Shown one piece after another: positions 5,365 to 63,986 of a stretch of 64,000 nt of DNA (positions are counted from its first letter, which is position 1; every line of letters starts with the position of its first letter). Below the pieces are notes generated by a model. That model saw nothing but the letters and a program-made list of their open reading frames with translations. It was not told where the DNA came from and did not search any database. This DNA is from a virus (taxonomy: Duplodnaviria > Heunggongvirae > Uroviricota > Caudoviricetes): the IMG/VR virus record IMGVR_UViG_3300032303_001313, positions 17,172 through 81,171 of that record; one strand, 5' to 3'. A program made the position numbers and the translations under genes.

Positions 5365-5724
5365 ATGAGTATTCTAGATAGTGATTCAGAAATCCTTATT
5401 GATAAAACAATTATAGTTGCTAGTAATATCAAAGAGGCTACTAAGCAAACTTTTCAAATCATGGTAAATGCTTTCAATACTGGATCAAAAATGTTTTGGA
5501 ATAATCCAGATGCAACCCCTTTAGAAATAGCACAAGCACTTGGATCAGATGCAAGAGAAGTATTTGAATTACATTATGCTTTAGGATTATTAGTAAACAG
5601 TATAAAACCAGAAAGAATACAAGAAGGTTGGGGAGTTATAGGCCAATTTACAATGAATGAAGATGGTACTGTTACTATTATTGAGCCTACTACAACTACC
5701 ACTACAACTCCAGAACCAACCTAA
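5365..5724 (+). CDS. Hypothetical protein with C-terminal Thr tract; possible fibre chaperone/accessory
   Basis: AGGAGA RBS upstream; lies immediately after the fibre gene; ends EPTTTTTTTPEPT. Confidence 0.55.
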   Translation: MSILDSDSEILIDKTIIVASNIKEATKQTFQIMVNAFNTGSKMFWNNPDATPLEIAQALGSDAREVFELHYALGLLVNSIKPERIQEGWGVIGQFTMNEDGTVTIIEPTTTTTTTPEPT

Positions 5725-8816: not shown

Positions 8817-9506
8817 ATGGCCGCACTATCGGATTACCTTGAGTCTGGTTTACTAAGTCATATCTTTAGAAACACAGCACTAACCAGACCTTCTACAATT
8901 GCTATTGCTTTAACAAGTGGTGTACCAATTGATTCTAATAATGGATCAACTATACCAGAACTACCATCGGGTGTTTTAAATGGTGGTAATTTTGTATCTA
9001 CTAACTATTCTCGTATTAATCTAGGTTCGCCAGCCTCAAGTGGTGATAATACTTGGAATTCTGTTGGCGTTGATAATACAACCGCATATAGCGTTTCTGG
9101 AACTAAGCAAAATGGATCAATGGGTTATTTTTACCCACTTTATTTGAGTGACTCAGCCGCTGCTACTGCCGGTGGAGTTGGTGCAACAACCGTAACGGTG
9201 AGTTTTAGTAAGGAATTCCCCTCAGTAAACTTCTATTCACCACAAAATCTATTCCAATCTGGAGTTAACGTAAAGTCTAACTATACAGATTATGAAGGTA
9301 ATGGATTCATCAGAAATAAGAATCAATTAGTATTCAATACCGCCCTTACTGAATGGGGTTGGGTTTCTGGCATTGCTATACTAGATAGTGCCACTATTGG
9401 ATCGGGCAATCTTCTAATGTATGCACCGCTATCAAATCCACGCTATGTTTATATCGGGGATAATATCAGATTCGATGCCAACTCATTAGAAATAAGCCTC
9501 AAATGA
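8817..9506 (+). CDS. Virion structural protein (mycobacteriophage gp80-like fibre-associated family) with internal insertion
   Basis: LSDYLE..LL.HIFR....TRP..I.IAL at the N-terminus; WG.VSGIAILD.AT.GSGNL.MYA.L...R.V..GD..RF...L.I.L at the C-terminus. Confidence 0.65.
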   Translation: MAALSDYLESGLLSHIFRNTALTRPSTIAIALTSGVPIDSNNGSTIPELPSGVLNGGNFVSTNYSRINLGSPASSGDNTWNSVGVDNTTAYSVSGTKQNGSMGYFYPLYLSDSAAATAGGVGATTVTVSFSKEFPSVNFYSPQNLFQSGVNVKSNYTDYEGNGFIRNKNQLVFNTALTEWGWVSGIAILDSATIGSGNLLMYAPLSNPRYVYIGDNIRFDANSLEISLK

Positions 9507-12500
9507 TCTTAAACAAGTCTGAACTTGTTGCTAATATAAATCAAGATATATCTGATCAAGCATACGGGCAAATCTCCCCATATGATATCAGACATAATCT
9601 GCTTGATATTATAGACTCTATTCATAACCTTACGGGCGATAAGGATTTATTTGCTGCCAATTTTGCTACTATTCCATCCGGCAATACTCAGGTGGGACAA
9701 TTAGCACTAGACTTAATCAAGACTCCCGAATCTAATAATAGTTTCAATACTGCCATTGGATATTCATCACTAAAGTCTAGTTATATTGCTTCTAAGAATA
9801 CGGCGGTTGGTGCTTATGCCCTATCTTGCAATGTTTATGGGGAAGGTAATTCTGCACTTGGTTATCACGCTCTTGCTGGAAATACTGTTGGAAATCTAAA
9901 TGTTGGTATTGGTAGTTTTGCTTTAAACAACAATAAGAGTGGCAATGGTAATATTGCTATCGGTCATGGGGCTGGATATTTTGTTGAAAAGGATGCCAGT
10001 TATAAGTTTTATTTAGCATCACATCCAGTTGATAATAACTACATATGCTCAAATCCAAGTGGTACTGGATTAATACCTCTGTTGTATGGAGATTTATCTG
10101 CAAATATATTAGGTATTGGAGTTAAAACCCTACACAATTTTGGTTCTCTACAAACTGGTGGAGATATCACACCTTCTGGCAACAACATTCTAAACCTAGG
10201 ACATTCTTCATATAAATGGAGAAATTTATTCCTATCTAGTTCTTTACTACTTGGTGATCAAGCATCCTTACTAACAGATAACTCAAGCAATATTCGTGTT
10301 AGTGGATCGCTTGTACCATTAACTAACAATATTTCTACTTTAGGATCGCCCGGTAGAAATTGGATTGCTGGATACTTTACAAACTTGACAGTCGAAGGTA
10401 CTGCGAGTATAAACAATCTAATATCATTAAATACTCAAGCATATTCTAACAAAAATCTTTACTTAGGCGTTAATAGTGGAATTAGTGGAATATATATTGA
10501 TTCTGCTCTTATTGGCGGTGGTTTATACTTAAAGTCAAGTACTAGTAAAGAATATTCTATAACATTTTATCCGGTCGCTTCTGGATTACAATCTTTTAGT
10601 GGAGATAATAGGGCTACTTGGAGAAGTAATGTAAGTTTCCAAATTCCAGAGTCTGGTTATGTAAGATCGGATAGTATACTGTCTTACGATCCAAATTCTT
10701 ATGGATTATTCTTTAATAGTGGAATAACATACTTTTCTCGTAAAGATGTTCTATCTGTAGTTCCAACAAGTAGTGGCGGTCATCTTGCTGGTATCGGTAA
10801 TGTCAATTTTATCTCTAACTCTGGACAGAATACTAACTATACATTATCAGTCTTGTCATTAGAATCTGGAGTTAATGTTAGTCAAAGATTCCTTAGTGGA
10901 GCAAAAGTTAGACAAAAAGATAATCTAAACTCAAATAAAGATAAATTACGCGGATTCGAAATCAAGTATATTGATGACGCTTATATTACAGTAGGAAGTA
11001 ATACAGATAGATTAGTAATTGGTTCATACGACAATACCTCTAAGTTTATCAACGGTGTTGTTCTTATGAAGAATTCTGATGATGGTTCAGTTTTTAGTGT
11101 TACAAATATACCGTCAGTAACAGAAAATATAGTACCAAATACAATCTTCAATGCTAGGTCTAAAAATGATTGCATAGGCCGATTTTCCTCTGAAAACAAT
11201 GGATTTTTTAAGTCTAGCATTCAGTTGCTAACAAATCTAAATTGTGAGTTAAGCGGCGTAGAGTTGGCCTATTTGAACAGAAGCGGCGTTTGCGACTTAA
11301 CAATGTTCAAAGATTCTGGAAGAATCATATATGCCAGACTTAAAGATCAGCAAATAGGCTTTTTATCAAGTGGAGTAACTAATTCTACAATTACGATTGG
11401 TCATAGCGGAATGGCTCAGTTGCCTTCTATTTCGTTAAAAGATAGTTCTTTTGTTTCTAGTACAACAATTACTGGAACGGTTGGTTATGGTAAGATTTAC
11501 AATACCCAAGATATTAAGCCATATTGTAACCAATCAAATTCTTTATTCTACATTGATGCTTCTGGCAACACTTTCAACCTAGTGGTTAATAAACTAGATA
11601 ACGTTGACGGTAGGGCGGTATACACAGATAATAACAACAATACATTCGCTGGTTATTTGTCCCCGTCTGGTCGCAAGATTAGCGGGTCGATTTTTTCCAA
11701 TACTACTTTTGGTAGTCAAGCACTCTATTCTATAAAATCTGGTTCTGGTAACTTAGCCATTGGTCATAATAGTCTTTATCATCTTGAAAGTGGCATAAAT
11801 AATATAGTTATCGGTAGAGAGTCCGGTAGTGGATTATTAGCATCAAACAAAAACATCATTCTAGGTAATCTAGCATTTAATAGAGCGGGTGCTTTAAGAT
11901 CAACTACTGACAACATTATCATCGGTAATGGTATAGGTTCTAGCCATTCTGGTTCATTTAACTTCGTCGTTGGAAACAAATCCGACGTTATTTTATTAGA
12001 AGGTAAGTTGGGGCCAGAAAATTCTGACAAGAGATTAGTTATGCCAAACGATGGCAAACTCTATCTTAACAATTTAGATAATACAGAAGGTTTATCTTTA
12101 AGAGCAAATATTATAGAAGTCATTGATAGTGGCGGTAGTAATTATCCAGAAAACTCATTGAATTTCTTATTCAGTGGAAATAATACCGCCACCTTATTAA
12201 CTCTTGATCATAATAGCAACCCTATGAGCAATAGCGTTTCTTACGCTGCTCCATCAACAGTTCGCCCGTTCGCAGAACTAAAGGGTGATTTGAAACTAAG
12301 AGGTTCAATAAGATTCAGTGATGGTACATCTCTTGAATCTTCTAGTGGTATTGCTATTGCTACAAACTTAGCCAATAGTGGAATTTCATTAGCAAATATT
12401 GCAAATAGTGGAGTTAACGTCCTTAATAGTATAATGATTGAGGGCTATATGCCAAATGGTATGGCCGCACCTTCTGTAGCATCATCACCAACTAGTGGAT

Positions 12501-12676
12501 TATTAGTAACCAAAAACTCTGCTTGGTCAAACTCTGCATCACTATTCATTTTTAATAGAGATACTACTTCTATAATTCATTCTGGAGCATATGTCGTTGC
12601 TGCTAGAATAAACGGGGAATACAAACCAATTTGGGTAAGCAGAGACAATGCCGACAGTTGTTGCTGCGACGATTAG
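9503..12676 (+). CDS. Large fibre/spike protein with YadA-head-like repeats
   Basis: Two arrays of ~14-aa N(T/S)A(I/V)G..AL repeats; N-terminus shared with ORF 16372; ends SCCCDD. Confidence 0.65.
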   Translation: MILNKSELVANINQDISDQAYGQISPYDIRHNLLDIIDSIHNLTGDKDLFAANFATIPSGNTQVGQLALDLIKTPESNNSFNTAIGYSSLKSSYIASKNTAVGAYALSCNVYGEGNSALGYHALAGNTVGNLNVGIGSFALNNNKSGNGNIAIGHGAGYFVEKDASYKFYLASHPVDNNYICSNPSGTGLIPLLYGDLSANILGIGVKTLHNFGSLQTGGDITPSGNNILNLGHSSYKWRNLFLSSSLLLGDQASLLTDNSSNIRVSGSLVPLTNNISTLGSPGRNWIAGYFTNLTVEGTASINNLISLNTQAYSNKNLYLGVNSGISGIYIDSALIGGGLYLKSSTSKEYSITFYPVASGLQSFSGDNRATWRSNVSFQIPESGYVRSDSILSYDPNSYGLFFNSGITYFSRKDVLSVVPTSSGGHLAGIGNVNFISNSGQNTNYTLSVLSLESGVNVSQRFLSGAKVRQKDNLNSNKDKLRGFEIKYIDDAYITVGSNTDRLVIGSYDNTSKFINGVVLMKNSDDGSVFSVTNIPSVTENIVPNTIFNARSKNDCIGRFSSENNGFFKSSIQLLTNLNCELSGVELAYLNRSGVCDLTMFKDSGRIIYARLKDQQIGFLSSGVTNSTITIGHSGMAQLPSISLKDSSFVSSTTITGTVGYGKIYNTQDIKPYCNQSNSLFYIDASGNTFNLVVNKLDNVDGRAVYTDNNNNTFAGYLSPSGRKISGSIFSNTTFGSQALYSIKSGSGNLAIGHNSLYHLESGINNIVIGRESGSGLLASNKNIILGNLAFNRAGALRSTTDNIIIGNGIGSSHSGSFNFVVGNKSDVILLEGKLGPENSDKRLVMPNDGKLYLNNLDNTEGLSLRANIIEVIDSGGSNYPENSLNFLFSGNNTATLLTLDHNSNPMSNSVSYAAPSTVRPFAELKGDLKLRGSIRFSDGTSLESSSGIAIATNLANSGISLANIANSGVNVLNSIMIEGYMPNGMAAPSVASSPTSGLLVTKNSAWSNSASLFIFNRDTTSIIHSGAYVVAARINGEYKPIWVSRDNADSCCCDD

Positions 12677-12687
12677 GATGAGTAATC

Positions 12688-13098
12688 ATGGGAAAACCAA
12701 ATATAAACTATTTCAAACTCAAAAATATCTACTCTATTTTTACAAACACAACTACAACAAGTCCACCAGTAGAGTATGATTTAGATTTTTTTGTACTTCC
12801 ATCTGGTAATGCTCAACAACCAAATCAACCAACTCTTCCTACTAAGCCACTAAGTAATTGTTTTGTTAAAGTGGCCGATATTGCAGTAAATAATGCCGGT
12901 TGTGATGCTGTACAAATTGAGTTGTCAGATATGATTAATAATTCTTTTGCTATTAGTGGTAGTGGCCTCTATTTTAACTGTTGCGATAAGATTAGTCAAG
13001 ACTACAGTGCTTATATTAATTTGTACTCGTTAGATAGAACTTTATTACAAAGACAACTATTTGCTATAAACACTAACTATGTAGATAATTTGTGTTAA
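12688..13098 (+). CDS. Hypothetical protein (short Thr tract, Cys residues)
   Basis: ORF fills the gap between the fibre and mucin-like genes in the same orientation. Confidence 0.55.
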   Translation: MGKPNINYFKLKNIYSIFTNTTTTSPPVEYDLDFFVLPSGNAQQPNQPTLPTKPLSNCFVKVADIAVNNAGCDAVQIELSDMINNSFAISGSGLYFNCCDKISQDYSAYINLYSLDRTLLQRQLFAINTNYVDNLC

Positions 13099-13099
13099 T

Positions 13100-15133
13100 A
13101 TGTCAAACTATTATGGTTCAATAAATCTTCCTATTGGTTCAAAGTACTCAGTAGATGGATTACTATTAAGAGTAATTCATACTGGAGGATATTTTGACCT
13201 TAAAATGGTTCATACTCAAGACGTTGCGTTAAATAATGGGCAGACGTTTATAACTACGACAGAAAAAAGTACTCTTAATCAAACCATTACGATTAAAGGT
13301 TTTCAACTACTATGGACTAATTTCAATGTAGTGTTGCAGAATACAATACAAGTCACAACTGGTTTGTATATGGAGGATAAGGTTCTTAATACATCTAATG
13401 TTTCTACTATTGATAACGATAGTATAAACTTGCTATCTTATGAAGATGTAACTCTTAACCTGTTTAACAAGAAATTAATAATCACATTTGATAGTTTGTA
13501 TAATAAGCCTAAAAATTGTTGCTATAGTTTTGCTTCATTTAATATTGTTCCAGTTACTACGACTACTACTTCAACAACTACAACTACTACAACAACAACT
13601 AGCACTACCACAACAACTACAACTACCTCAACAACCCCATGCCCATGTTCTAACGATACTCTTGATTGTGTGTCAATTTGTATTGCTAGATGTGCAAGTA
13701 TGGGAATGTCTTATTTAGATTCTGTAACAATTCCATGCGATTGTGATAGTGGAGATAAAGATTGTTATTGTTCTTGTTTTGGAACAACTACTACGGTAGC
13801 ACCAACTACTACTACAACTACACCTGTTCCAACAACTGTACCGCCGACAACCACTACTACAGTAGCACCAACAACTACTACAACTACTACTACGGCTGCT
13901 CCTACAACAACTACTACTACAACTACAGCAGCACCGACAACTACGACTACTACTACAACTGTAGCACCAACAACAACTACGACTACAACTACTACGGCTG
14001 CTCCACTTAACTGTTACTATTGTGATCCACAAAATGGGTGTGTGCCAGTATTCATACCAAATCCCACAGTATCTAATTGTGCAGCATATGGTATGTATAG
14101 TAGTAGTTCTGAGTGCGATGATTGTGCTATTGAAGTATACTGTGATTCAGAGAATGGTTGCATTAATTCTGGAACATTTTCTAAAAAATCGGACAACCCA
14201 AATGGCAAATATGCTTCAAGTTCATCTGATTTTTCACTTTGTAACTATTGTTATAAAGATTATTCGTGCGTTAATTATTCATGTATTGAAATTGGGTTAT
14301 TTTATTGGCATGAAGGCCCGAAGTTTGTTACCGGCATAGTAGATGGTCAGCCGGGAGAGATAAACGTTCCATTAGAAGCCTGTAAGATTATTTGTACCAC
14401 AACAACAACGACTACCACTACTACGACAACTACAACGACTACTACGACAACAACAACTACTACAACTACAACGACTCCAGCCCCCACTACAACAACTACA
14501 ACAACTACTACTTTACCACCACCCACAACTACTACCACAACGACTCCAGCACCAACTACAACTCCATCGCCAACTACAACTCCACCACCTACAACAACGA
14601 CTCCAGCACCAATTGATCCATGTGCAACATCTGGATTATGTCAAGTTGGAGAGAATCTTGGCGTTCCAGTATGTTGTCCATGTGGATCAAGTTATGTTAA
14701 TGGAATGTGTTGTCCAGCAGACGCTGGCGATTGTGAGCCTCCAGACAACCCTTGGCTTCCACCAATTCCTTGTGGCCCATGCAATACTTCTAATTGTGAA
14801 GTATGCTCAGACGGGGTATGTAGGGATAAATGTAATTCTAGTAAATGTTATGGTTGTAATGGTAATGGAGATTGTGTTTACCAATGCGACAGATGTAGTA
14901 CTTGTATAGGAGGTCAATGCGTAGGTTGTGGAGAAGGCGAAGTATGTTGTCCAACCATTAATATAGAAACTAATACTGGGTGCTGGGTTGAATCAGAATT
15001 AATAATAGAAGCACTTATTGGGCCATGTCAAGAAGGTCTAACTTGTTGCCCAGATGGTAATTGTCCATTCCCGAATTATGTTTGCTGTGCGTGGGGAGGT
15101 TGTGCAATGACACCATGTGACTGTCTAATTTGA
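13100..15133 (+). CDS. Mucin-like Thr/Pro-tract protein with three Cys-rich modules
   Basis: Three poly-Thr tracts with mixed ACN codons alternate with Cys-dense modules. No signal peptide visible. Confidence 0.8.
   Translation: MSNYYGSINLPIGSKYSVDGLLLRVIHTGGYFDLKMVHTQDVALNNGQTFITTTEKSTLNQTITIKGFQLLWTNFNVVLQNTIQVTTGLYMEDKVLNTSNVSTIDNDSINLLSYEDVTLNLFNKKLIITFDSLYNKPKNCCYSFASFNIVPVTTTTTSTTTTTTTTTSTTTTTTTTSTTPCPCSNDTLDCVSICIARCASMGMSYLDSVTIPCDCDSGDKDCYCSCFGTTTTVAPTTTTTTPVPTTVPPTTTTTVAPTTTTTTTTAAPTTTTTTTTAAPTTTTTTTTVAPTTTTTTTTTAAPLNCYYCDPQNGCVPVFIPNPTVSNCAAYGMYSSSSECDDCAIEVYCDSENGCINSGTFSKKSDNPNGKYASSSSDFSLCNYCYKDYSCVNYSCIEIGLFYWHEGPKFVTGIVDGQPGEINVPLEACKIICTTTTTTTTTTTTTTTTTTTTTTTTTTTPAPTTTTTTTTTLPPPTTTTTTTPAPTTTPSPTTTPPPTTTTPAPIDPCATSGLCQVGENLGVPVCCPCGSSYVNGMCCPADAGDCEPPDNPWLPPIPCGPCNTSNCEVCSDGVCRDKCNSSKCYGCNGNGDCVYQCDRCSTCIGGQCVGCGEGEVCCPTINIETNTGCWVESELIIEALIGPCQEGLTCCPDGNCPFPNYVCCAWGGCAMTPCDCLI
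13555..13635 (+). repeat. Thr-codon tract 1
   Basis: Run of ACA/ACT/ACC/ACG codons. Confidence 0.9.
13784..14000 (+). repeat. Thr tract 2 with (V/A)AP/VP spacers
   Basis: Repeated T(4-9)-(A/V)-A-P units. Confidence 0.9.
14396..14610 (+). repeat. Thr/Pro tract 3
   Basis: Long uninterrupted Thr run followed by PAP/PPP spacers. Confidence 0.9.
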
Positions 15134-15188: not shown

Positions 15189-15788
15189 ATGAAACTGAAA
15201 TCAATTGCAACTATTCAACCACCACCATATTCGGATAATACTGGTAAAGTTATTACCCCGAATCTAATTACACTAGATAGTATAGATTTAGTAATAATAG
15301 ATAATACCAAAAACAAAACTGTTATTGCTCAAATCTTACCAATATCTATTACTACTGTAATTTGGAAAGGGGCAGATTACGATTTAATAGGAGATTGGAC
15401 TAAATCTCAGGTAGAAAAGAAACTAGAAGAGTTGATGGGAGATAATCCATCTAAATTCTTACGCTCTCTCTATCCCAAAACCCTAGAAGAAAATCCAAAC
15501 CACCCCGGCACTCAATTATCCAAAATGATTAAGAGTGTTGGTATCCAAATGACAGATAGTTGTTCTTGCAAGCGTCACGCCCTTGAAATGAATGAAAATG
15601 GTAACGATTGGTGCGAAGCAAACATGGATACTATTGTTGGATGGCTTAGAGATGAAGCAAAGACCCGTGGATTGCCATTTATGGACGCTTTAGGAAAAAT
15701 ACTAGTCGGTAGGGCTATTAAAAAGTCTCGTAAGTTATTAGCAAATGAGCCAGTTCCAGATAATGACGAGGAATTAGACACTATTTAG
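15189..15788 (+). CDS. Two-domain hypothetical protein with C-terminal CSC...WCE domain
   Basis: AAGGA RBS. N-terminal domain ends W.G.DYD.IGDWT...VE..L.EL; C-terminal domain PGTQL....CSC......M...G.DWCE.NMDTIVGWLRDEA..RGLPF. Confidence 0.7.
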   Translation: MKLKSIATIQPPPYSDNTGKVITPNLITLDSIDLVIIDNTKNKTVIAQILPISITTVIWKGADYDLIGDWTKSQVEKKLEELMGDNPSKFLRSLYPKTLEENPNHPGTQLSKMIKSVGIQMTDSCSCKRHALEMNENGNDWCEANMDTIVGWLRDEAKTRGLPFMDALGKILVGRAIKKSRKLLANEPVPDNDEELDTI

Positions 15789-54302: not shown

Positions 54303-54626
54303 TCAATCCGTCGCTCCAAGCGACCGTAAAATCCTTGCCGCTTTTAGTAGATCGACGTTGATAGCACCACCGTTCTCGTCCCGCACTTGTAGACGCGATT
54401 TACCGTCCGATCCAGAAATGATCGCCCAGCCGTAGATACCTTCCTTACTACGAGCGCCAACCCATGCACTATCTCCTTCAACAGCCAACGTAATATGTTG
54501 ACCGCTTCTGCCAAAGAAAACGTACTTGTTATCACCGCTGGCATCAATAGCCAAAGGTGAAGGCCAAGCCGCCGCTATACATAGAGAACATAAAACCGAA
54601 AGAACGCAAGCGTAAACGGTTCTCAT
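54303..54626 (-). CDS. Small exported protein (signal peptide)
   Basis: AGGAG RBS supports the second Met (54626); MRTVYACVLSVLCSLCIAAAW is a signal-peptide-like N-terminus. Confidence 0.6.
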   Translation of the reverse strand: MRTVYACVLSVLCSLCIAAAWPSPLAIDASGDNKYVFFGRSGQHITLAVEGDSAWVGARSKEGIYGWAIISGSDGKSRLQVRDENGGAINVDLLKAARILRSLGATD

Positions 54627-54661
54627 TTGAAAACTCCTTATGTTAAAAACTGAATCGAATC

Positions 54662-54997
54662 TCATTCTGCTTTCTCAGTCTTAGGGTTCCACTTGACCCA
54701 ACCGTTATGCTCTAGCCACTTTCCTTCTGCATCCTTACGTTTGGGGAACAAGCCGCCACCCTTCTTATGAACACCGAATGATAGTCTAGCACCACACTTT
54801 GTACAGCGTAGTTCATAATACTGATTATCATCTACTGTTCTTACAACAAAGCGGATATCTTCCGATCCACACTTTCCGCAAGTAGTTTCCTCAAAAACCT
54901 CTTGGAATCTACTTAGTTCCGTGAATAAATCCTTCTGTGACTCACCCTCTAATTCTCCGCTTAATCTACCATTCTTACTTGTATATGTAATTTTCAT
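54662..54997 (-). CDS. Zinc-ribbon protein
   Basis: CGKC...ELRCTKC (two CxxC pairs). Confidence 0.7.
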   Translation of the reverse strand: MKITYTSKNGRLSGELEGESQKDLFTELSRFQEVFEETTCGKCGSEDIRFVVRTVDDNQYYELRCTKCGARLSFGVHKKGGGLFPKRKDAEGKWLEHNGWVKWNPKTEKAE

Positions 54998-55740
54998 TTA
55001 CGCCACTCCTGTTGATAACCTGTTACTTCTTTTGGAATTGAATTCTTATCACGCTGATAGTCGTTTAGTTTATCAATGATTTCACTAGCGACCTTTTTAG
55101 AAACCTTTTTCCTACTATCTACACCGCAAATTATAAATAGTTTCTCTCCATCGATGTTGAGTTGCTTACACTTAACATCAATATAGTTGAATTGTGCATC
55201 ACTTATTCCAGACTGATCGTTATATTCTCCCTCGCTAGCACTTGTAGCGTTGGAAATTGATCGAACAATCTTTGCGGTATCTTTCTTAGTCAGTTCTTCC
55301 GCAGCAACACCCTTAATCTTTAGAGCCTTTCTTAATGCTCTGGCTTCTGCTCTAGTGCTAGCAATAGCGACGGCATATGCACAGAAATTATCATCTGTGT
55401 TACCTTCCCAAGAGTCTGCAACTTCTGCGTATCTAATACCGCCCTCAAATTCTACAGTAAAGACTACTGTTGCTCTACCATGATGATCGTCACGCTGAAC
55501 TGGGAACACCTGTGTAGGGCCGCTGTAGACGATTCTGCCTAGCGTTAATTCAGCAACACGCCTTAGACCCGCTACAAGGGGATGACCATCAACAATCTCT
55601 GATGCGTCAAAAAGACTCATGGCATAATCATGCCACTCTGGACTTAGCATATGCGGAGCATCTACCATAACAACGTTCTTTACTGAGGTATCTGTATTGC
55701 TAGGTGTTTCTAATTGTACATCATTGAATAAATTACTCAT
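54994..55740 (-). CDS. Rad52/Sak-like single-strand annealing protein
   Basis: GLRRVAE...RATV.FTVEF.......AD.......A.AIASTRAEARALRKAL core plus C-terminal ISDAQ..YI helix. Confidence 0.55.
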   Translation of the reverse strand: MSNLFNDVQLETPSNTDTSVKNVVMVDAPHMLSPEWHDYAMSLFDASEIVDGHPLVAGLRRVAELTLGRIVYSGPTQVFPVQRDDHHGRATVVFTVEFEGGIRYAEVADSWEGNTDDNFCAYAVAIASTRAEARALRKALKIKGVAAEELTKKDTAKIVRSISNATSASEGEYNDQSGISDAQFNYIDVKCKQLNIDGEKLFIICGVDSRKKVSKKVASEIIDKLNDYQRDKNSIPKEVTGYQQEWRK

Positions 55741-56504
55741 ATCTCTATTTCTATATACCTTTCTGATTTTGCAGGAAACGATTTCTCTATTATACTCAAA
55801 CGTTTTAGAATGTCAAGTCTCAACTTTTCCCTGTCTGCTAAACACACAGAATCCGACAAGTTTTTAATTCTTATGATTACCATACCTTTACTCAAAATCA
55901 AACCCGTCTTTTGTGTGTCTGCTTTAATTTGCTTTTGTAATTTCTCTTCTCCCCATATGGGCAAGAAGTGAGAAGGCCCGTCTACCTCTATGATAGTCTT
56001 GAGGGCAGGAATGTACATATCCAACTCCATATCTTGGTTTTGGATCAGTTGCTTTTTATGATACTGAACAGTGTACCCGCCCTTTGTAATTTCTTCATAA
56101 ATGAATTTCTCAAGTTTGGAACCTTCTTTACCAGCAATTTGTATGCTCTTGATAGCGGCGGTCATCATTTTGTCTTTATCAATATCAGACATATTTTCCC
56201 AACGGGTTTTAGATTGCTGGACTCTAGCATCATATATTTCTTGGGACATATTATCCCAATAGTTCTTTAGCCCCGAACTAATCTTTAATTTCTCTTCTTG
56301 TGTTCTTTCTTTACCATCTGTTGGATGCTTTGCTGTGCCATTTTCAATAGCATTCTTTTGGGCTTCACTTTTAGTTTTAAGTACAACCCCTTGCTTTATT
56401 AAAATACGTCTAATTCTATTTGGATAGGTATTGAATTTCTCAGCAATTTCATATGTACTTTTATCTTGTTCTGTGTACATAGTAACGACTTGGTTTATAT
56501 TCAT
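55737..56504 (-). CDS. HTH/NUMOD3 plus Vsr-like (DUF559-type) endonuclease; possible homing endonuclease
   Basis: N-terminal HTH (STYEIAEKFNTYPNRIRRIL), HPT.GK.RT.EEK.KIS motif, C-terminal ELDMYIP....IEVDGPSHF. Confidence 0.7.
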   Translation of the reverse strand: MNINQVVTMYTEQDKSTYEIAEKFNTYPNRIRRILIKQGVVLKTKSEAQKNAIENGTAKHPTDGKERTQEEKLKISSGLKNYWDNMSQEIYDARVQQSKTRWENMSDIDKDKMMTAAIKSIQIAGKEGSKLEKFIYEEITKGGYTVQYHKKQLIQNQDMELDMYIPALKTIIEVDGPSHFLPIWGEEKLQKQIKADTQKTGLILSKGMVIIRIKNLSDSVCLADREKLRLDILKRLSIIEKSFPAKSERYIEIEI

Positions 56505-56938
56505 TGTATTTCCTGTAAGGCTAAGTTATCAAAATTCTCTGAAATTCCTAAGACATTTAAGCCCGTAAGTCTATATATTTGTTTTGCTTCACGTTCTGAT
56601 CTAGCGTAGACTTTGATGTTAGAATTCTGTAATAACATTACAAAGTCGAGAGCATTATCTATTTTTTCCCACCCATTATAATAGACAATGTTTATCTTAT
56701 TTACAACCTTGAGTGCTGTAGCCAACGAGCGTAAAGATGTTACTATTAAAGTCCCGCTAAAACTCCACAACTCAGTAGAGTTAAACATACCGCACTTTGT
56801 TTGATCTGGATTGAATGCAATATTGTCATAGAAAATACTAATATCCTTGACATTGGCTGCATTTTTTTCTACGAACTTATTGATCTGAGTTAACTGATCA
56901 GTATCCATGAGATTTGAAATGTAGATTCCTAGATTCAT
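56501..56938 (-). CDS. Hypothetical protein, possibly a partial GT-like Rossmann domain
   Basis: Coupled by ATGA overlaps within the glyco cluster; alternating beta/alpha pattern. Confidence 0.5.
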   Translation of the reverse strand: MNLGIYISNLMDTDQLTQINKFVEKNAANVKDISIFYDNIAFNPDQTKCGMFNSTELWSFSGTLIVTSLRSLATALKVVNKINIVYYNGWEKIDNALDFVMLLQNSNIKVYARSEREAKQIYRLTGLNVLGISENFDNLALQEIQ

Positions 56939-57768
56939 TTTAATATTTCCTCTATGATTTTTACTCTATTTTTATAGGTATGGTATTTTGCCAATCCCAA
57001 AGCCGATATCTCTATACTTTTTCTAAAATCTTCTTCATTAAGGGCAGTTTTTATTTTTTCTAACATTTCATTCTCTGTATGATAAATTAAGCAATTAACT
57101 TTATCCCTTAGTCCTAATATCTCATAATGTCTATTATAACTTGTTAGTAAGCACGTTCCGCATCCAATAGTCTCAAAGTTTCTATAATTAATGTCAATAG
57201 ATATATTTGCGTTAAAATGTATCTTATATGAATTGATAGACTTTACCATACTATCACCAAGAACAAAAATATCTTTGCGTATACCAAATTGTCTGTCAAT
57301 AGAATCTATCAAATATCCACGATTATTTATATTGCCACAAAAACCGATATTATGTTCCTTTTTGACTGATAATGGTTTGATCATATCATCGTCATAACAG
57401 TTTGGAAACCATACGCTATTATCGGTAAGAAATTCTGGTGTCGATTGTAATATGAGATCATACTTACCATTTTTGAATGTTTCTAGATAACTATTCAAAC
57501 CTTTACAGTGAGCATCTATAGCCCATATAAACTTTGTGGTTTTAGCCGAACTTAAATCTGGAACCCATCCGGTTTCATCATAGTTTTCGATGTTTATAAT
57601 CAAATCATACGAATTCCAATCCGGCGTGTCTTGATAGTTGCTATGTCCCAACCCCCAAACAGATGCTTCGTGTCCATGAAATTCAAATGCTCTTTTTAGA
57701 GACATACATTCTCTATACTCAACATTTTCCTTGTGTCTACTGTGTTCTTGTATAATTATTGTTTTCAT
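56935..57768 (-). CDS. Glycosyltransferase, CgeB-like GT-B family
   Basis: IGFCGN...R; YKI.FN.....DINYRNFE..GCGTCLLT motif. Confidence 0.8.
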   Translation of the reverse strand: MKTIIIQEHSRHKENVEYRECMSLKRAFEFHGHEASVWGLGHSNYQDTPDWNSYDLIINIENYDETGWVPDLSSAKTTKFIWAIDAHCKGLNSYLETFKNGKYDLILQSTPEFLTDNSVWFPNCYDDDMIKPLSVKKEHNIGFCGNINNRGYLIDSIDRQFGIRKDIFVLGDSMVKSINSYKIHFNANISIDINYRNFETIGCGTCLLTSYNRHYEILGLRDKVNCLIYHTENEMLEKIKTALNEEDFRKSIEISALGLAKYHTYKNRVKIIEEILK

Positions 57769-57770
57769 TG

Positions 57771-58376
57771 TTAATTAAGTAAGGAGTTATTAATAAATAT
57801 AGATTCTTTTATATATCTTTTGGGGGGATTTTCTGACTCTCTTATCACCTCTGTATATCCAAAAGATTCTATTTTTTTTATACAAGAAAGGGTATCTTGT
57901 ATTGTGAACATATTACCAAGCCAGTGATGCCATTCTATACATACTTGATCAACATTTAGAGATTTAAGTGAGTCTATACATGAATATTCTGATCCTTCAA
58001 TATCCATCTTTAAAATTGATATATCATATTGACTAAGTATGTCATTTAATAACACCGTATCAAATGTTGATCCACCTCCGCTGTCTATAATTGAAGAGGC
58101 TTCTCCACCTATGCATATTTGTTGATTTACTCCATATAAGGCTTTATCTATATAGATGTATCTATTTTTAAACTGTTCTGGTATATTCTTTACACTGTTT
58201 TTGGATGCGTCAGTTGGATCGATCCCAATTATTTTAATAGTATCATCTAATTCTAATAATCCTAGATCAAATGTTATATCGTGAGCCAAGCCTGCGGATA
58301 AAATAAAACTATTCTTCCGTATTAAACTCGTATCTATTATCCAACCTCCCCAGCCAGACCCTATTTTTGTGAGCAT
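57771..58376 (-). CDS. FkbM-family methyltransferase
   Basis: ILSAG...DITFD, IIGIDPT, ILKMDIEGSEY, QVCIEWH. Confidence 0.8.
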   Translation of the reverse strand: MLTKIGSGWGGWIIDTSLIRKNSFILSAGLAHDITFDLGLLELDDTIKIIGIDPTDASKNSVKNIPEQFKNRYIYIDKALYGVNQQICIGGEASSIIDSGGGSTFDTVLLNDILSQYDISILKMDIEGSEYSCIDSLKSLNVDQVCIEWHHWLGNMFTIQDTLSCIKKIESFGYTEVIRESENPPKRYIKESIFINNSLLN

Positions 58377-58378
58377 AA

Positions 58379-58999
58379 TTATTCAGATTTTCTAACAAAA
58401 AATGTGTTTCCACCAGTTTCTGCATACTTAACGTAGTTTATATTATCCATAAATTCGTTAAGAGTAATAATATCCATACTATGTTCTACGCATATTAATG
58501 ATGGTCTATTTTTTGTCCAATCATTTGATGATAATACTTCTATATCTACACCTTCAACATCTATTGATAAAAAATCGACGCTATCACAATTTTTCAGTAT
58601 ATTATTCAATGTTATAGTATTGATTTTGACTACTTCTTTATACTTATCCCCATGCCTATTGGTAATATGTTCTTTAAAGTCTTTAGACATAGTTGAGACT
58701 GATCCATCTATACCACTAGAATATAGATAAAAATCTAGTTCAGTTTCTATATTAAAACATCCATAGTTTAGCAATTCTATATTGTGGTTGTATTGATAAA
58801 TTCTTTTTAGGCTTTCGAAATATTCTGGATGCGGTTCTACCAATATTCCAGACCAAGATTTGCTTTCTATTAGATATCTTGAATTAGAATATGTTATACC
58901 ATCCATAGCACCAATATCTACTAAAAATCCATTTTTTTTATCTCCAAAAAACTGAGATAATATTGTTTCTTCGCCATACTGAGAATAGAAATTATGCAT
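58379..58999 (-). CDS. FkbM-family methyltransferase
   Basis: YSQYGEE, GFLVDIGA.DG.TYSNS, WSGILVEP, DFLSIDVEG. Confidence 0.9.
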   Translation of the reverse strand: MHNFYSQYGEETILSQFFGDKKNGFLVDIGAMDGITYSNSRYLIESKSWSGILVEPHPEYFESLKRIYQYNHNIELLNYGCFNIETELDFYLYSSGIDGSVSTMSKDFKEHITNRHGDKYKEVVKINTITLNNILKNCDSVDFLSIDVEGVDIEVLSSNDWTKNRPSLICVEHSMDIITLNEFMDNINYVKYAETGGNTFFVRKSE

Positions 59000-59013
59000 A
59001 ATTTATCTTTCTA

Positions 59014-59652
59014 TTAGTTGAATTGCGGAATATCATTTTCATTATATACTTGTCCAACAAAATATGATCCGGTTCGTTGGATAGCATTAATTGGAAAAGG
59101 TTTTAGTTCAAAGAATTCGTCATGAACCATAGCCCTATCTTTAACAGACGGATAAATCATTTCTTTAAGAAAATTTTGATCAACTTGATATTGATTATCA
59201 TACTCTCTCTTATCATAGTCTTCTATCATCTTTGAAATCCCTTTTATGATACCATTTCTACATCCCCATGCACATCCGAGTATTTCGATCCTATGATATG
59301 GGTGATCTCTCATTATATGAAAGTCTTTGTCACTATTGAGCCATTCTTCTACTGCTGCCTTTTCTCTATAATTTAGTCTACTATCAGTATCTCTACAAAT
59401 ATAAATGTCATCAGAATCTGCACCCAAAAATCTCCACATCATACCGTTCCAACCAGTATCATTCATAAGTTGAATTTCAGCATCTAGAGACTTAAGTTGT
59501 TCAATAATATCTATAGGGACATCATTTCCAACATAGAATCTACACTTCCAATCTGGATATATTGTCTTTGCTAATTCTGCATTCTTTACAGCCCCAATTG
59601 TATATTTTGGATTATTTCCCCATAATGAGAAACATATTATTTTATTAGTCAT
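59014..59652 (-). CDS. Putative GT-A glycosyltransferase
   Basis: FSLWG....Y..GA..N.....IYPDW..RFY; MMWRFL; RDTDSR (DxD-like); FHIMRDHP.H. Confidence 0.65.
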   Translation of the reverse strand: MTNKIICFSLWGNNPKYTIGAVKNAELAKTIYPDWKCRFYVGNDVPIDIIEQLKSLDAEIQLMNDTGWNGMMWRFLGADSDDIYICRDTDSRLNYREKAAVEEWLNSDKDFHIMRDHPYHRIEILGCAWGCRNGIIKGISKMIEDYDKREYDNQYQVDQNFLKEMIYPSVKDRAMVHDEFFELKPFPINAIQRTGSYFVGQVYNENDIPQFN

Positions 59653-60355
59653 TTGTTATCCTATCTTTTGGAAATCCAAGTTCTTTTCTTTTCTGAAAAA
59701 CTAATCCATCTCTACCAGAATAATATAGTGTTTTTTGAGCAGCAAAATCAAAATCTCCAGAATTGATATTACCCTCTCTTGAATAATGTTCATGTGATAT
59801 AATCACATTATTCATATATTTTACTTTATTAAGCCTATAAACTTCTTGCGTAAATTCATCATCGCAGTATAGACTTTTATAGTCTGGATGATAAATATAT
59901 CCAAAGTAATCATATAGTTTTTTACCCATTATCGATAGTGTAATTAGATTACTTTTTGTATACCCATCATTAAAGTGTAAGCATCCATCTGTGTCGGGAA
60001 ATGTTTGCTCCATATTAGTGACTATGATATCATCCCAGTTATATTTTATTGGTATCATATCATCGGACAAGCATATCACAATATCAAATTTTTTATCTTT
60101 TATGTGATCATTTATAGCACTAATTTTATTGGTATTCCTATCAAAGTTTAAACTTACATCTAACTTTGTATTAGATTTGAATAATTTTAATATTTCATAT
60201 AACATTTCTGGATTATTCATTGTTTTATCTTCATAGTCACAATTGATATTAAAATGAATTTCTCTCTTGTCGCTATGTTTATCAATATATTTCTTAACAC
60301 AATTTAGAAACTTTTCTGGTCTTCCTAGTGTTGGAAATTGTACTAACATCTTCAT
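59645..60355 (-). CDS. GT2-like glycosyltransferase
   Basis: FPT.GRP.KF, KISAIN, DIVICLSDDM, YCDDEF, H.H pattern. Confidence 0.75.
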   Translation of the reverse strand: MKMLVQFPTLGRPEKFLNCVKKYIDKHSDKREIHFNINCDYEDKTMNNPEMLYEILKLFKSNTKLDVSLNFDRNTNKISAINDHIKDKKFDIVICLSDDMIPIKYNWDDIIVTNMEQTFPDTDGCLHFNDGYTKSNLITLSIMGKKLYDYFGYIYHPDYKSLYCDDEFTQEVYRLNKVKYMNNVIISHEHYSREGNINSGDFDFAAQKTLYYSGRDGLVFQKRKELGFPKDRITND

Positions 60356-61161
60356 ATTTCACCTATCTTATTTTCAATCTTTTGAACTAAATCATTACAA
60401 GACAAGAAAGACATTAGCGATTTAGTTCTATTTAGACAAGTATGCTTCTTCTTGACTGATGATAGGAATTTCTCGCCCTTGAAAATATTGCTTAATAGAT
60501 CGGTGTCTTTTTGAACATCAAAGATTGTCTTTACATCGCTATAGATAGCGTCAAAAGATACTTGCGAGCCTATGTAAGACTTACTGAATACTATTTGATC
60601 ATAACATTTGAATATGGAGTTGAGTCCAAAGATTGGTAGTACAAAATCTACCTTATTATGCAATTCTGGCACTGTGGTTGTGAAGTGGTATGTACCATCT
60701 TGTTCAACCAATTGATCTTCTGAGTCTATGAAAATTAACTTGTCGATCTTGAAGTTTGCTTTAGTTCTATTAACAAATATATCTGCGGCGGGCAGAAGGT
60801 TTAAAAACTTGAACTTATACTGACTTGCCCAAGAAACATACCCGTAGTATGATGCTATTATACCGTTTGACTCTAGGCTGTCAACCACTTCTTTTACTTT
60901 GCTGGCATCTTTTTCTTCAATACCGCTTAAGCAAATTACTAGTTTGATCTTGGTATCTTTGATGTAAGAAACAATATCTCTAGAAAGGTGAGTAAAGTGG
61001 GTTATGAATATATCGGGCTTTACAATATCAAAGTTATCATAAGCACTCTTATTTGGATCATAAATTGCTGATATATTGTCCTCAACCGTATTTAGAGAAC
61101 CATTAAGATATAATGCTTCTGTATTCCAATAAGAACTGTAGTTAGAAATTAAGAATTTCAT
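60352..61161 (-). CDS. Hypothetical protein, possible degenerate GT-B
   Basis: AAGGA RBS; KPDIFITH and C-terminal HT..NR motif resemble GT-B proteins. Confidence 0.45.
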   Translation of the reverse strand: MKFLISNYSSYWNTEALYLNGSLNTVEDNISAIYDPNKSAYDNFDIVKPDIFITHFTHLSRDIVSYIKDTKIKLVICLSGIEEKDASKVKEVVDSLESNGIIASYYGYVSWASQYKFKFLNLLPAADIFVNRTKANFKIDKLIFIDSEDQLVEQDGTYHFTTTVPELHNKVDFVLPIFGLNSIFKCYDQIVFSKSYIGSQVSFDAIYSDVKTIFDVQKDTDLLSNIFKGEKFLSSVKKKHTCLNRTKSLMSFLSCNDLVQKIENKIGEI

Positions 61162-61861
61162 GGTTTTCCTTTATATGATGATATGTCTTTATGTTGTTTA
61201 TTTTATGGATTTGGTGGGTATTTTCTATACAATGTATATCGTGCTTTTTCAACAAATCGTTAATAGCCTCAAAAACAAACTTCTTCTTGCTGTCATTGTG
61301 ACTTAAAAACTTACGCATATCCTCAATACTTTCGTATCCGTTAACAAAGAATACTTCTGACCATGTTTGGTAAGCCCCAAAAGAAAAATACTGGGCTTTG
61401 TTTTCATCGTCAATATTGATGCCTATTTCCAAGTTTTCTATAGGATTCTTTTCCATCAGTACGCAGTTTTTAGAAGTATCAACGCATAGAAGTGCTTTAT
61501 GACTGATTAGTAGATTTCCGTCCATAAATAGGATTTTGTCATTTAAGGTATTGTTAATGGATAATCTTGCACCTTCGCATGAATTACAAGAATTAAACAT
61601 CTGATTTTCTACTATACGAATATTTAGTTTAGAGTATTTAGCCCTTATATACTTTGTAATCTTATCAGCATCAAAACCTACACATAAAACGATTTCATAT
61701 TGACTGAAAGCCTTTTTGATAGCACTTATCTGTAAGTCTAAAAGGTGATTATCTTTAATCTTTATCAAAGACGTAGGCCCGTAAGACTTCATTCTATATC
61801 CGGGTAGATCGCATAGTATTGCTACCGTGATCAAATCGTTATTTATTTTCTTTCGATTCAC
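61142..61861 (-). CDS. Nucleotidyltransferase (LicC/MobA/NTP_transf-like)
   Basis: G.RMKSYGP.SLI.I....LLD.QI; LCVGF.A; EN......NS; LFMDG.L. GTG start at 61861 preferred over TTG 61882. Confidence 0.7.
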   Translation of the reverse strand: MNRKKINNDLITVAILCDLPGYRMKSYGPTSLIKIKDNHLLDLQISAIKKAFSQYEIVLCVGFDADKITKYIRAKYSKLNIRIVENQMFNSCNSCEGARLSINNTLNDKILFMDGNLLISHKALLCVDTSKNCVLMEKNPIENLEIGINIDDENKAQYFSFGAYQTWSEVFFVNGYESIEDMRKFLSHNDSKKKFVFEAINDLLKKHDIHCIENTHQIHKINNIKTYHHIKENHEILNF

Positions 61862-62609
61862 AGTTTTCTTCCAAATTGACAAAAAGGTTAAAATTCTTTA
61901 CACTTTCAACCATTTGCGGGAATATAGCATCATATTCAAAATACAGTGCTGGATACATCATTTTGAAGGCTAGGCTTGAAATTGCTGTTAATTTATTGTA
62001 GGTGAATATAAGCCCGCCCCTTAGTTCGTCATTTACATACTCATTAATCTTGTGCAAGAATAAGTTGATATTATCTATGTTTTCTATATTGCAATTTATA
62101 TGGTTAGTACTATCGTTTCCCATTATATGGTTAGTAATGCAGACATCTTTTTGCAAATACATAGCAACTTCTGTGTTCTTATTGTTTTGAAAGTGGTGTA
62201 ATACATCATATCTTTCAGAAGATGTTGCAGATAAAGGGAATAGGATTAAGAAACGTAGTTTGTTTTCTGGATAGTCTATATTCTTAATTACTTGAGCAAT
62301 ATGGTTGATATTTTCCTTACTACAATCTTCTAGGTGAACAATAATATCGAATGATAAACTTGATTGCTGTTTTGCTAATTCAAGGTCTTTCACTCCATTA
62401 TTCCACGTTGGTAGTCTGTATAGGTTGCATAATCTTTTGATTACATAGAACTTATGAGTATCATCGTAAGCAGCAACAACTTGATTCTCTTTTTTCAAGA
62501 ACTTTTCAAGCCTATTAGCATCACACCCAGTTTGTGTATCGCCCTCATATTGGGCAAATATACAATTTTTGCAACTAGTTTCAACTATTTCTTGAGGCGT
62601 AGATTTCAT
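61839..62609 (-). CDS. Hypothetical protein with N-terminal Cys cluster
   Basis: CKNC...C...C motif followed by an alpha/beta domain. Confidence 0.55.
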   Translation of the reverse strand: MKSTPQEIVETSCKNCIFAQYEGDTQTGCDANRLEKFLKKENQVVAAYDDTHKFYVIKRLCNLYRLPTWNNGVKDLELAKQQSSLSFDIIVHLEDCSKENINHIAQVIKNIDYPENKLRFLILFPLSATSSERYDVLHHFQNNKNTEVAMYLQKDVCITNHIMGNDSTNHINCNIENIDNINLFLHKINEYVNDELRGGLIFTYNKLTAISSLAFKMMYPALYFEYDAIFPQMVESVKNFNLFVNLEENCESKENK

Positions 62610-62997
62610 ACAACGCTCCTTTTAGTGTAACCTTATCAATCTGTAATCCTAATGCTAAAAGTTTGTCTGTGAGGTCTTTAACATCATGAATGGATTTTCT
62701 GGCGTATAATGCTTGATTTAATTCTTCTATCTTTACTAATCTATTTATCAAATCCCTACTTAAACAGTTTGCATCGACTCCGCTGATAAATACTTTACCA
62801 TTAAGTCTCAAGAGTTTGCGTACTTTCGCAAGACTGTCTTGCAATCTATTATAAGGTATTTGTTCTAAAGTCCCCGGTAGTAGTATCGATTCTACTGAAT
62901 TATCTGGAATATCAATATCGATACCAGATTCATCTATAATAATAGGGTTATGACCGTCAACACAGTCTTGAATATCGGTTAGAAAGTGGATTTTCAT
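62581..62997 (-). CDS. Truncated class I SAM methyltransferase-like protein
   Basis: IPDNSVESI.....LE......L.....LLR.NG.V.I motif; lacks a clear motif I. Confidence 0.6.
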   Translation of the reverse strand: MKIHFLTDIQDCVDGHNPIIIDESGIDIDIPDNSVESILLPGTLEQIPYNRLQDSLAKVRKLLRLNGKVFISGVDANCLSRDLINRLVKIEELNQALYARKSIHDVKDLTDKLLALGLQIDKVTLKGALYEIYASRNS

Positions 62998-63986
62998 TTT
63001 GATGATACCTCGTATACTTGATTAAAAACATTATTCCAATTGTCTACAAAGTTCTGAATATTGAACTTACTTAGTATTGTTTCTCTTGCCTTATTACCAA
63101 TATTAACTCTTAATTCTGGATCATTAAGTAGAGTATCTATGTATTTTCTTAACTCACCTTCATCATTTGAGATAAAGCCGTTAACACCATTCTTGATTAT
63201 TTCTGGAATCATACAGGTTGCGGTAGAAACTACAGCACAACCACATGACATAGCCTCTAATAATGAGGTTGGTATTGGGCTTAATGTTGAACTATTAAAG
63301 TAAACTAAGCATGAATTATATTCATCTACTAATTCTAACACAGAAGAGGCTGGTTTTGATAGACCTTCTGTTTCTCCAACAACCCTTACTTTTAATCCTT
63401 CTGTAACTCTTTTCCAACCATTAAAGTTAAGACAATAATCACGATTAATGAAATCATTTGCAATAGTCAAAACCGATCCATTTTTATCACTATCATTTGG
63501 GGCGAATAAGTTATGATCTACTCCGTGATGGATTACCTCTCCTATTAAACCCCAAGACTTTTGAGAATATTCAGATATAAATATGTTAACATCGCCAAGC
63601 ATTTGACGCATACTATTTATCTGCTCAATATTCATTACGTTTGGGGTTGGCAGAGTATGTTCTAAACAAATAATTGGTAAGTTTAGTCTATTGTTTATGT
63701 CTTTGGCTACTTGAAACTGACCAAACTTACTTTGTACTAATATGAAATCATAATCTAAGTAATTACATAGTTGATTTTGTGGTAGTATATGATAGTTACT
63801 TGGAACTGGCGTTTGAGCAAAATTCCATTCTTTCATCCCTTTTATATTCAGAGAATAGAAATTATGACCAGTTTTGCACAACTCTGTTTCATACCTTTCA
63901 TGAGTTGGAAAGGTGAGAATATTGTATTTAGAACGCGGTTGACGATTTGTAATGTCTATGATACGTTCTACGCTATTGTTATACAT
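62994..63986 (-). CDS. GT4-family glycosyltransferase (GT-B)
   Basis: HGVD...F; P.SLLEAMSCG..VVST..C.IPEII..G.NG; F.I..F...W..VF. Confidence 0.9.
   Translation of the reverse strand: MYNNSVERIIDITNRQPRSKYNILTFPTHERYETELCKTGHNFYSLNIKGMKEWNFAQTPVPSNYHILPQNQLCNYLDYDFILVQSKFGQFQVAKDINNRLNLPIICLEHTLPTPNVMNIEQINSMRQMLGDVNIFISEYSQKSWGLIGEVIHHGVDHNLFAPNDSDKNGSVLTIANDFINRDYCLNFNGWKRVTEGLKVRVVGETEGLSKPASSVLELVDEYNSCLVYFNSSTLSPIPTSLLEAMSCGCAVVSTATCMIPEIIKNGVNGFISNDEGELRKYIDTLLNDPELRVNIGNKARETILSKFNIQNFVDNWNNVFNQVYEVSSK

Follow-up and report, generated by a model that had tools for sequence, protein, structure and literature searches.

A modular threonine- and cysteine-rich protein in the structural operon of a tailed phage: a candidate exchangeable accessory of the virion surface

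The stretch of DNA analysed here (the window) comprises 64,000 nucleotides (nt), positions 17,172 to 81,171, of the IMG/VR virus record IMGVR_UViG_3300032303_001313, a tailed phage of the Caudoviricetes. One of its genes, g33, encodes a protein in which threonine (Thr)-rich tracts alternate with cysteine (Cys)-dense modules. This protein is probably a dispensable accessory fibre or adhesin of the virion surface that evolves by module swapping. In the proposed mechanism, a conserved N-terminal beta-sandwich would fix the protein to the particle, three threonine/proline (Thr/Pro) tracts would serve as extended hydrophilic spacers, and three acidic Cys-rich modules would form small disulfide-stabilised domains held off the particle. 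These modules may weakly contact surfaces of cells or particles, with glycans or other polymers as the probable partners. The slot that the gene occupies, immediately downstream of a fibre gene, appears to be a hot spot of recombination in which phages exchange distal modules, at least sometimes through breaks inside the linker-coding DNA. An initial annotation of this DNA had proposed a virion appendage, and that is still the best reading in view of the structural operon, the conserved N-terminal domain, the variable distal modules and the FN3 domains in orthologues.

The gene is real and unusual. It is one uninterrupted open reading frame (ORF) with an ATG start and encodes an acidic protein (pI 4.15) of 677 amino acids (aa), which include 157 Thr (23.2%), 60 Cys (8.9%), 55 Pro and 3 His. 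Of the 167 ORFs called on the virus record, no other exceeds both 20% Thr and 8% Cys; the other structural proteins of the genome contain 0-1% Cys. The protein is built as follows:

13100..15133, plus strand: target gene g33, 677-aa modular protein (ORF call, composition)
13100..13546, plus strand: N-terminal conserved beta-sandwich domain, aa 1-149, proposed virion anchor (phmmer matches, AlphaFold2 (AF2) model)
13547..13639, plus strand: Thr-rich linker 1, aa 150-180, 24 Thr (composition)
13640..13783, plus strand: Cys module 1, aa 181-228, 10 Cys (composition)
13784..14008, plus strand: Thr/Pro/Ala linker 2, aa 229-303, 50 Thr and 10 Pro (composition)
14009..14395, plus strand: Cys module 2, aa 304-432, 14 Cys and two YCDxxNGC units (composition)
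14396..14611, plus strand: Thr/Pro linker 3, aa 433-504, 53 Thr and 14 Pro, with a run of 27 Thr (composition)
14612..15130, plus strand: Cys module 3, aa 505-677, 34 Cys and five CC pairs (composition, relatives, AF2)

The ORF and its composition confirm the layout originally described, with a globular N-terminal domain, three Thr/Pro tracts and three Cys-dense modules containing CC pairs. There are six CC pairs (aa 140, 525, 537, 616, 649 and 662) and ten CxxC motifs. The YCD..NGC repeats listed in the same description are present as well, in two copies (YCDxxNGC at aa 307 and 347) and not three. The stated absence of a signal peptide agrees with the N-terminus, MSNYYGSINLPIGSKYSVDG, which has no hydrophobic core when judged by eye only. 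No Pfam or PHROG family matched the whole protein at E ≤ 0.01.

Judged from its alignments, the N-terminal domain defines a family without a Pfam or PHROG name. A phmmer search with aa 1-150 against 1.84 billion representative sequences gave 27 matches at E ≤ 1e-3, between 66 and 1026 aa long, one of which (P0025) looks spurious. The domain is the sole part conserved over these library matches, and in nearly all of them it is followed by a Thr/Ser/Pro (T/S/P) linker and then by unrelated distal parts. A family set of 33 distinct proteins was compiled from the target, four viral-contig orthologues, 12 proteins from capsid-related loci and 16 library proteins; ten fragments of at most 247 aa and P0025 were left out. 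A T/S/P linker lies within 60 aa after the domain in 29 of these 33 proteins. Six residues are invariant in the family alignments (G6, P11, G13, K15, G20 and H38), and the target has all of them. A hidden Markov model of the domain matched 15 of 80 capsid-related loci. A shared docking site best explains why this domain is kept in 33 proteins whose tips are otherwise unrelated, and we infer that the protein sits in the virion with its N-terminal end as the anchor. Among the distal parts, P0009 and P0017 carry FGE-sulfatase domains and P0010 a ConA-like domain (Laminin_G_3); in the L011 orthologue, FN3 repeats at aa 183-456 match titin FN3 with E 1.3e-39. Seven columns of the domain are typically Cys, defined as Cys in at least 70% of the rows having a residue there. 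The target keeps only C140 and C141 and has no Cys at aligned positions 3, 5, 134 and two further columns, so it is an atypical family member.

The AF2 model of the N-terminal 150 aa, built on a 27-row alignment, is a ten-strand all-beta sandwich with a predicted local distance difference test (pLDDT) score of 92.5 and a predicted template modelling (pTM) score of 0.84. Foldseek against the PDB returned nothing at E ≤ 0.001 (best E 0.034), and the best VIA matches were generic sandwiches (PLAT/C2, CBM6/32/36) with Z up to 6.0. The best row in BFVD was unnamed (E 7e-4, template modelling (TM) score 0.47). The ESM Atlas gave no usable feature match, and all of its structural rows had TM below 0.42. 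None of these hits appears to be a clear structural relative of the modelled domain. Relatives of the domain were not found in bacterial and archaeal genomes, tblastn of the target against 50,697 phage records gave no match, and the whole target found no relative among viral contigs. The viral-contig relatives were recovered with a 5-sequence alignment as query; an 11-sequence alignment was too divergent for this purpose. In the full-text literature, with subscription journals outside the scope of the search, neither this family nor any poly-Thr, Cys-rich structural protein of a phage was found described.

The virus record (145,171 bp) is 94% complete according to CheckV and encodes a large terminase, a ClpP-type protease and bacterial-type replication genes. 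The target gene follows the probable capsid gene (7707-8708) at a distance of three genes and precedes the gene for a 2310-aa tape-measure protein (25204-32136) by 13. All are on the same strand, and the target starts 1 nt past the g32 stop codon, which makes its earlier assignment to a head/neck operon reasonable. Promoter-like and terminator-like sites near the gene occur at chance level. Its closest neighbours are:

9503..12676, plus strand: g31, fibre-like 1057-aa virion protein ending in SCCCDD (PHROG virion structural and tail spike families)
12688..13098, plus strand: g32, 136-aa gene (orthologues in relatives)
15189..15788, plus strand: g34, conserved 199-aa gene (73-80% identity in relatives)

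The viral contig collection yielded at least 600 matches to the probable capsid gene, the best 80 of them 76-83% identical, and 50,697 deposited phage genomes yielded none. The lineage is abundant and has no cultured representative among these deposited genomes. Orthologues of the target occur in perfect synteny on five viral contigs. Between the window and these five relatives, the flanking genes are 70-93% identical and the N-terminal domain 41-44% identical, and the remainder of the protein is unalignable or module-swapped, a pattern of rapid change within an otherwise conserved gene neighbourhood. The slot that follows g31 was compared in the 34 loci with a complete g31 among the best 80 capsid-gene matches. 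It ranges from empty to more than 6 kb, and non-empty loci hold one to six ORFs. In six of the 34 loci the cassette is absent and g31 is followed by g35 after 75-108 nt; by comparison, the cassette appears dispensable for particle assembly. T/S/P linkers of at least 20 aa are specific to the slot: they are found in 25 of 46 distinct slot ORFs versus 3 of 299 ORFs elsewhere. The proteins of L048 and L062 are nearly identical to that of L058 up to the third Thr-rich linker and unrelated to it beyond, which shows one exchange with its junction inside the linker.

Receptor-binding proteins, too, typically combine a conserved N-terminal domain with hypervariable distal modules. It is conceivable that the target serves as the primary receptor-binding tail fibre and that its Cys modules form the host-specific tip, but we consider this very unlikely. 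The slot is gene-free in six related loci whose capsid genes are 76-83% identical, the gene is head-proximal, 13 genes ahead of the tape-measure gene, and the proteins of 3642, 1585 and 1125 aa encoded downstream of the tape measure are better candidates.

The preceding fibre gene may provide a further link between the cassette and the particle. The Cys cluster at the C-terminus of g31, SCCCDD (window 12656-12673), directly precedes the variable slot. Both features were scored in 45 related loci (L016-L095), with a tail counted as Cys-rich if it had at least two Cys in the last 12 aa and the first downstream protein if it had at least 3% Cys. Both were Cys-rich in 17 loci and neither in 21, a concordance of 38 out of 45 (Fisher p 3.1e-6). 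Five loci combine a Cys-poor tail with a Cys-rich downstream protein, and each of these tails still has one Cys. The opposite combination was seen in two loci; in each of them the contig ends within the downstream ORF. The g31 tree contains three (on well-supported branches) to five independent contrasts, none in the opposite direction and too few for a sign test. The cleanest contrast is between L024, with tail CSHCNN and a 752-aa Cys-rich family protein, and its sisters L050 and L052, with CPNFGN and no cassette. This co-variation suggests that cassette proteins may be coupled to the distal end of the g31 fibre.

The co-variation also enters a more elaborate model, which is unlikely in our estimate, of a mucin-like glycoprotein brush on the particle with cassette proteins plugged onto the g31 fibre. 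A deoxyhexose and methyl-sugar pathway of the phage would add O-glycans to the Cys-rich, poly-Thr cassette proteins in the cytoplasm, and the Cys cluster would tether these proteins to the distal C-terminus of g31. That protein would be a universal socket for interchangeable sticky modules, and its Cys tail would be lost whenever the Cys-rich cassette is lost.

It is highly improbable that the target stays outside the virion as a free binding or decoy protein released at lysis. Nothing physically ties it to the particle and the gene is accessory, which would suit such a role; against it stand the tight packing of the gene in a structural operon, the N-terminal domain kept in 33 proteins with otherwise unrelated tips, and the Cys tail of the upstream fibre, which co-varies with the cassette.

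The Cys modules of the proposed accessory fibre are conserved to different degrees. Module 3 is common to the orthologues of L011 (48%, E 4e-23), L007 (35%) and L009 (32%), module 2 is common only to P0001 (33% over 92 aa, E 2.6e-7), and module 1 has no match in any relative. Neither module 2 (aa 303-433) nor module 3 (aa 505-677) had a match in word-indexed searches of proteins 372-1185 aa long. A sequence profile search of the PDB with module 3 found no match. The AF2 model of module 3 contains beta-hairpins and has a pLDDT of 61.8 overall and 72-85 over the first 100 residues. A fold search with it gave nothing above Z 2.5 or below E 1.5, and its ESM Atlas score of 0.75 is below lead level.

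In the target and its five closest relatives, each of the 15 modules has an even number of Cys, as do 42 of 54 modules family-wide (binomial p 2.6e-5, uncorrected for relatedness); the family-wide count excludes two ORFs truncated at locus ends. Many of the counts are not multiples of four (10, 14, 34, 6, 18, 26 and 46). Even counts that are often not multiples of four favour disulfide-type pairing over all-Cys metal sites, without proving it, and disulfide-type use of the Cys residues is the favoured interpretation of these sequences. Metal-binding modules of the zinc or iron-sulfur type, in place of disulfide-bonded ones, seem improbable. Ten CxxC motifs and cytoplasmic synthesis without a signal peptide would fit them, but the parity of the modules does not point that way, His is not enriched (3 in 677 aa), and Pfam searches with each Cys module returned zero families even at E ≤ 10, zinc-finger families included.

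Outside the window, at L005:5957-6337 (minus strand) of G000, a gene encodes a thioredoxin-fold protein with a signal- or transmembrane-like N-terminus and a WCHFC motif, which looks like an exported thiol-disulfide oxidoreductase. It is of interest as the same phage encodes Cys-rich surface proteins.

Several points weigh against an accessory fibre with disulfide-stabilised adhesive modules. Virions are assembled in the reducing cytoplasm, so disulfides would need to form late or after lysis, and the Cys count is odd in 12 of the 54 family modules. Modules 2 and 3, the two that were tested, have no relatives beyond this phage group, and the C-terminal model (module 3) is of moderate quality only. 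Pfam and PHROG scans recognised neither FN3 nor any other binding domain in the target itself. The slot and parity statistics rest on related sequences, and their p-values therefore overstate independence. Finally, the linker-junction swap is a single example.

The codons of the Thr tracts bear on how these tracts are maintained. Thr is encoded in the target by 75 ACT, 56 ACA, 16 ACG and 10 ACC codons; the fractions (0.48/0.36/0.10/0.06) match those of the whole genome (0.45/0.37/0.07/0.12), in agreement with the mixed usage noticed at the outset. The longest run of the same codon is three and the longest perfect tandem repeat 23 nt. Tandem Repeats Finder detected imperfect arrays only, with 70-85% matches, among them a 33-nt (11-aa) repeat in linker 2 with 4.4 copies and 77% matches. 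Linker lengths vary widely among diverged relatives, which retain T/S/P-rich linkers of other sequence and length. This supports the initial annotation in its view that the Thr tracts are maintained at the protein level. Its suggestion that tract length may vary by slippage found no support. The heterogeneous codons argue against hypermutable tracts, and a 3051-nt orthologue is identical across three separate contigs (L010, L011 and L015); slippage-prone tracts are thus not supported by the sequences compared.

Nine tRNA genes, including one for tRNA-Thr(UGU), and a tmRNA gene (tag GETRFALAA) are located outside the window in G000 (L002:13-2875 and L005:5600-6777). For comparison with this phage tRNA-Thr(UGU), ACA accounts for 36% of the 157 Thr codons of the target.

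A different role for the Thr tracts would follow from sugar modification. They may be densely O-glycosylated in the cytoplasm by phage glycosyltransferases (GTs), which would turn them into a stiff mucin-like brush and make the protein the main substrate of the GT cluster. This is possible, but rather doubtful. The GT genes in question belong to the following block:

54303..63986, minus strand: window part of a sugar-modification block, with two GT1-type GTs, two FkbM methyltransferases and DUF6564 (Pfam)

The block extends beyond the window, and three further GT1 genes are encoded in the rest of the genome, along with single genes for a GT2, an FkbM methyltransferase and a GDP-mannose 4,6-dehydratase. 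This makes three FkbM genes in all; the five GT1-type GTs and the GT2 exceed the Pfam cut-offs. The dehydratase gene lies upstream of the terminase gene, and its product has matches of 47-51% in many phyla, which gives no clue to the host. GT1 genes are conserved in relatives. They occur in 4 of 5 records and in 8 of 19, the latter including each of the six records with a completeness of 61% or more. Precedents are available: paired GTs O-glycosylate the Ser/Thr-rich repeats of bacterial serine-rich repeat adhesins in the cytoplasm (PMC8498110), and phage-encoded GTs are reported to glycosylate capsid and tail-tube subunits of mycobacteriophages on their C-termini (as cited in PMC12619734).

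On the other side, the GT genes are approximately 39 kb from the target on the opposite strand. Together with the FkbM genes, they are interleaved with genes for a single-stranded DNA-binding protein (SSB), a split Pol III alpha subunit, an exonuclease, a PD-(D/E)XK nuclease, a deoxynucleoside monophosphate (dNMP) kinase, a primase and DnaB. This arrangement leaves DNA or other substrates equally open, and some of the GT and FkbM genes could instead act on DNA or nucleotides. Record G006 lacks the cassette, and none of its ORFs in the 78.5 kb from the terminase to the GT block is both Thr-rich and Cys-rich; it nevertheless has three GT1 genes, which implies another substrate for the GTs. GTs are also retained in three records with low-Cys cassettes (G012, G015 and G016). 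Substrates may lie elsewhere, such as in other virion proteins, DNA or the host envelope, and the target may or may not be modified as well; glycosylation is unreadable from sequence. Several structural proteins consist of 13-15% Ser and could be among these substrates. The designation of the protein as prime substrate of the GT cluster, made in the initial annotation, is not supported in view of the lineage-wide presence of GT1, its retention in G006 and the distance and strand of the GT genes.

As an accessory surface protein, the target is best compared with the decoration proteins Hoc of T4 and pb10 of T5. According to the abstracts of PMC10385173 and PMC5292684, these are dispensable proteins with a capsid-binding domain and solvent-exposed Ig-like domains. 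Shared features, as far as these abstracts go, would be a dispensable surface protein, one conserved particle-binding domain and a string of variable exposed domains; the Ig-like FN3 repeats occur in the L011 orthologue and not in the target itself. No sequence match was seen, and neither chain is among the fold matches listed, where VIA gave generic sandwiches at Z ≤ 6.0. The anchor of the target is an N-terminal beta-sandwich, whereas in pb10 the domain that binds capsids is alpha-helical, and in Hoc it is C-terminal. The target furthermore has poly-Thr/Ser spacers and Cys-rich tips, neither of which is mentioned in those abstracts. By analogy, the protein is best read as working like Hoc-type decoration proteins, outside any named family.

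Serine-rich repeat adhesins (Fap1, GspB, SraP and PsrP, with GtfA/GtfB) are similar in that a long stalk of hydroxy amino acids presents a binding region. Unlike them, the target lacks a signal peptide, an accessory Sec system and a cell-wall anchor, belongs to a phage structural operon, and has a Thr/Pro-rich stalk in place of Ser-dipeptide repeats; the nearest GTs are not adjacent to it. The mycobacteriophage case shares phage-encoded GTs and virion proteins as a possible target. As cited, the glycans there are on capsid and tail-tube C-termini, whereas the candidate here is an accessory modular protein. Eukaryotic gel-forming mucins also alternate Pro/Thr/Ser tracts with Cys-rich domains, and the three tracts of the target comprise about 178 aa with 127 Thr. 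In contrast to mucins, the target has no secretory signal and no VWD, C8, TIL, CysD or CTCK/cystine-knot family in Pfam even at E ≤ 10. The only structural match to mucins was MUC5AC, which was not significant (Foldseek E 2.8). The mucin resemblance is convergent composition. Low-complexity Pro/Thr spacers between autonomous domains are also found in bacterial glycoside hydrolases and carbohydrate-binding modules; those enzymes are secreted, whereas the context here is a phage particle.

These observations identify an annotation gap, as the most variable structural slot of a lineage with at least 600 capsid-gene matches is filled by a family that no library names. The family may represent a different route to an exchangeable outer layer, with a beta-sandwich anchor, poly-Thr/Ser stalks and disulfide-type mini-domains versus strings of Ig-like domains. 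It raises the questions of how a particle assembled in the cytoplasm gains disulfide-rich domains, whether phages other than mycobacteriophages glycosylate their particles, and whether low-complexity linker DNA serves as a domain-swap junction. The conserved anchor domain could be used as a display handle.

Neighbouring genes show related features. Orthologues of g32 in four relatives are 311-460 aa long and consist of the N-terminal domain of g32, followed by a Thr/Ser linker and a module with as many as 32 Cys. In the window, g32 corresponds to this 136-aa domain only and has apparently lost its distal part. As a paralogue of the N-terminal domain of the target, g32 was rejected (hhalign probability 0.06). 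The g34 gene accompanies the cassette in most relatives and is absent where the cassette is absent. Of the six loci in which the sequence beyond the family gene was readable, five have g34; the exception, L024, weakens the idea of an obligate partner.

In the head module, a 119-aa protein (g26, 5365-5724, plus strand) ends in EPTTTTTTTPEPT. Its C-terminal tail of seven Thr was considered as a conserved GT substrate and rejected, since it was found in only one of seven relatives with the gene (L016). The N-termini of g31 (9503-9640) and of the 301-aa g36 (16372-16500) contain a similar motif by eye only (..ISPYDIRHNLLDIIDSI.. and ..ISASDVRNSMLDIVDSI.., respectively), a candidate for an attachment motif shared by two distinct fibres.

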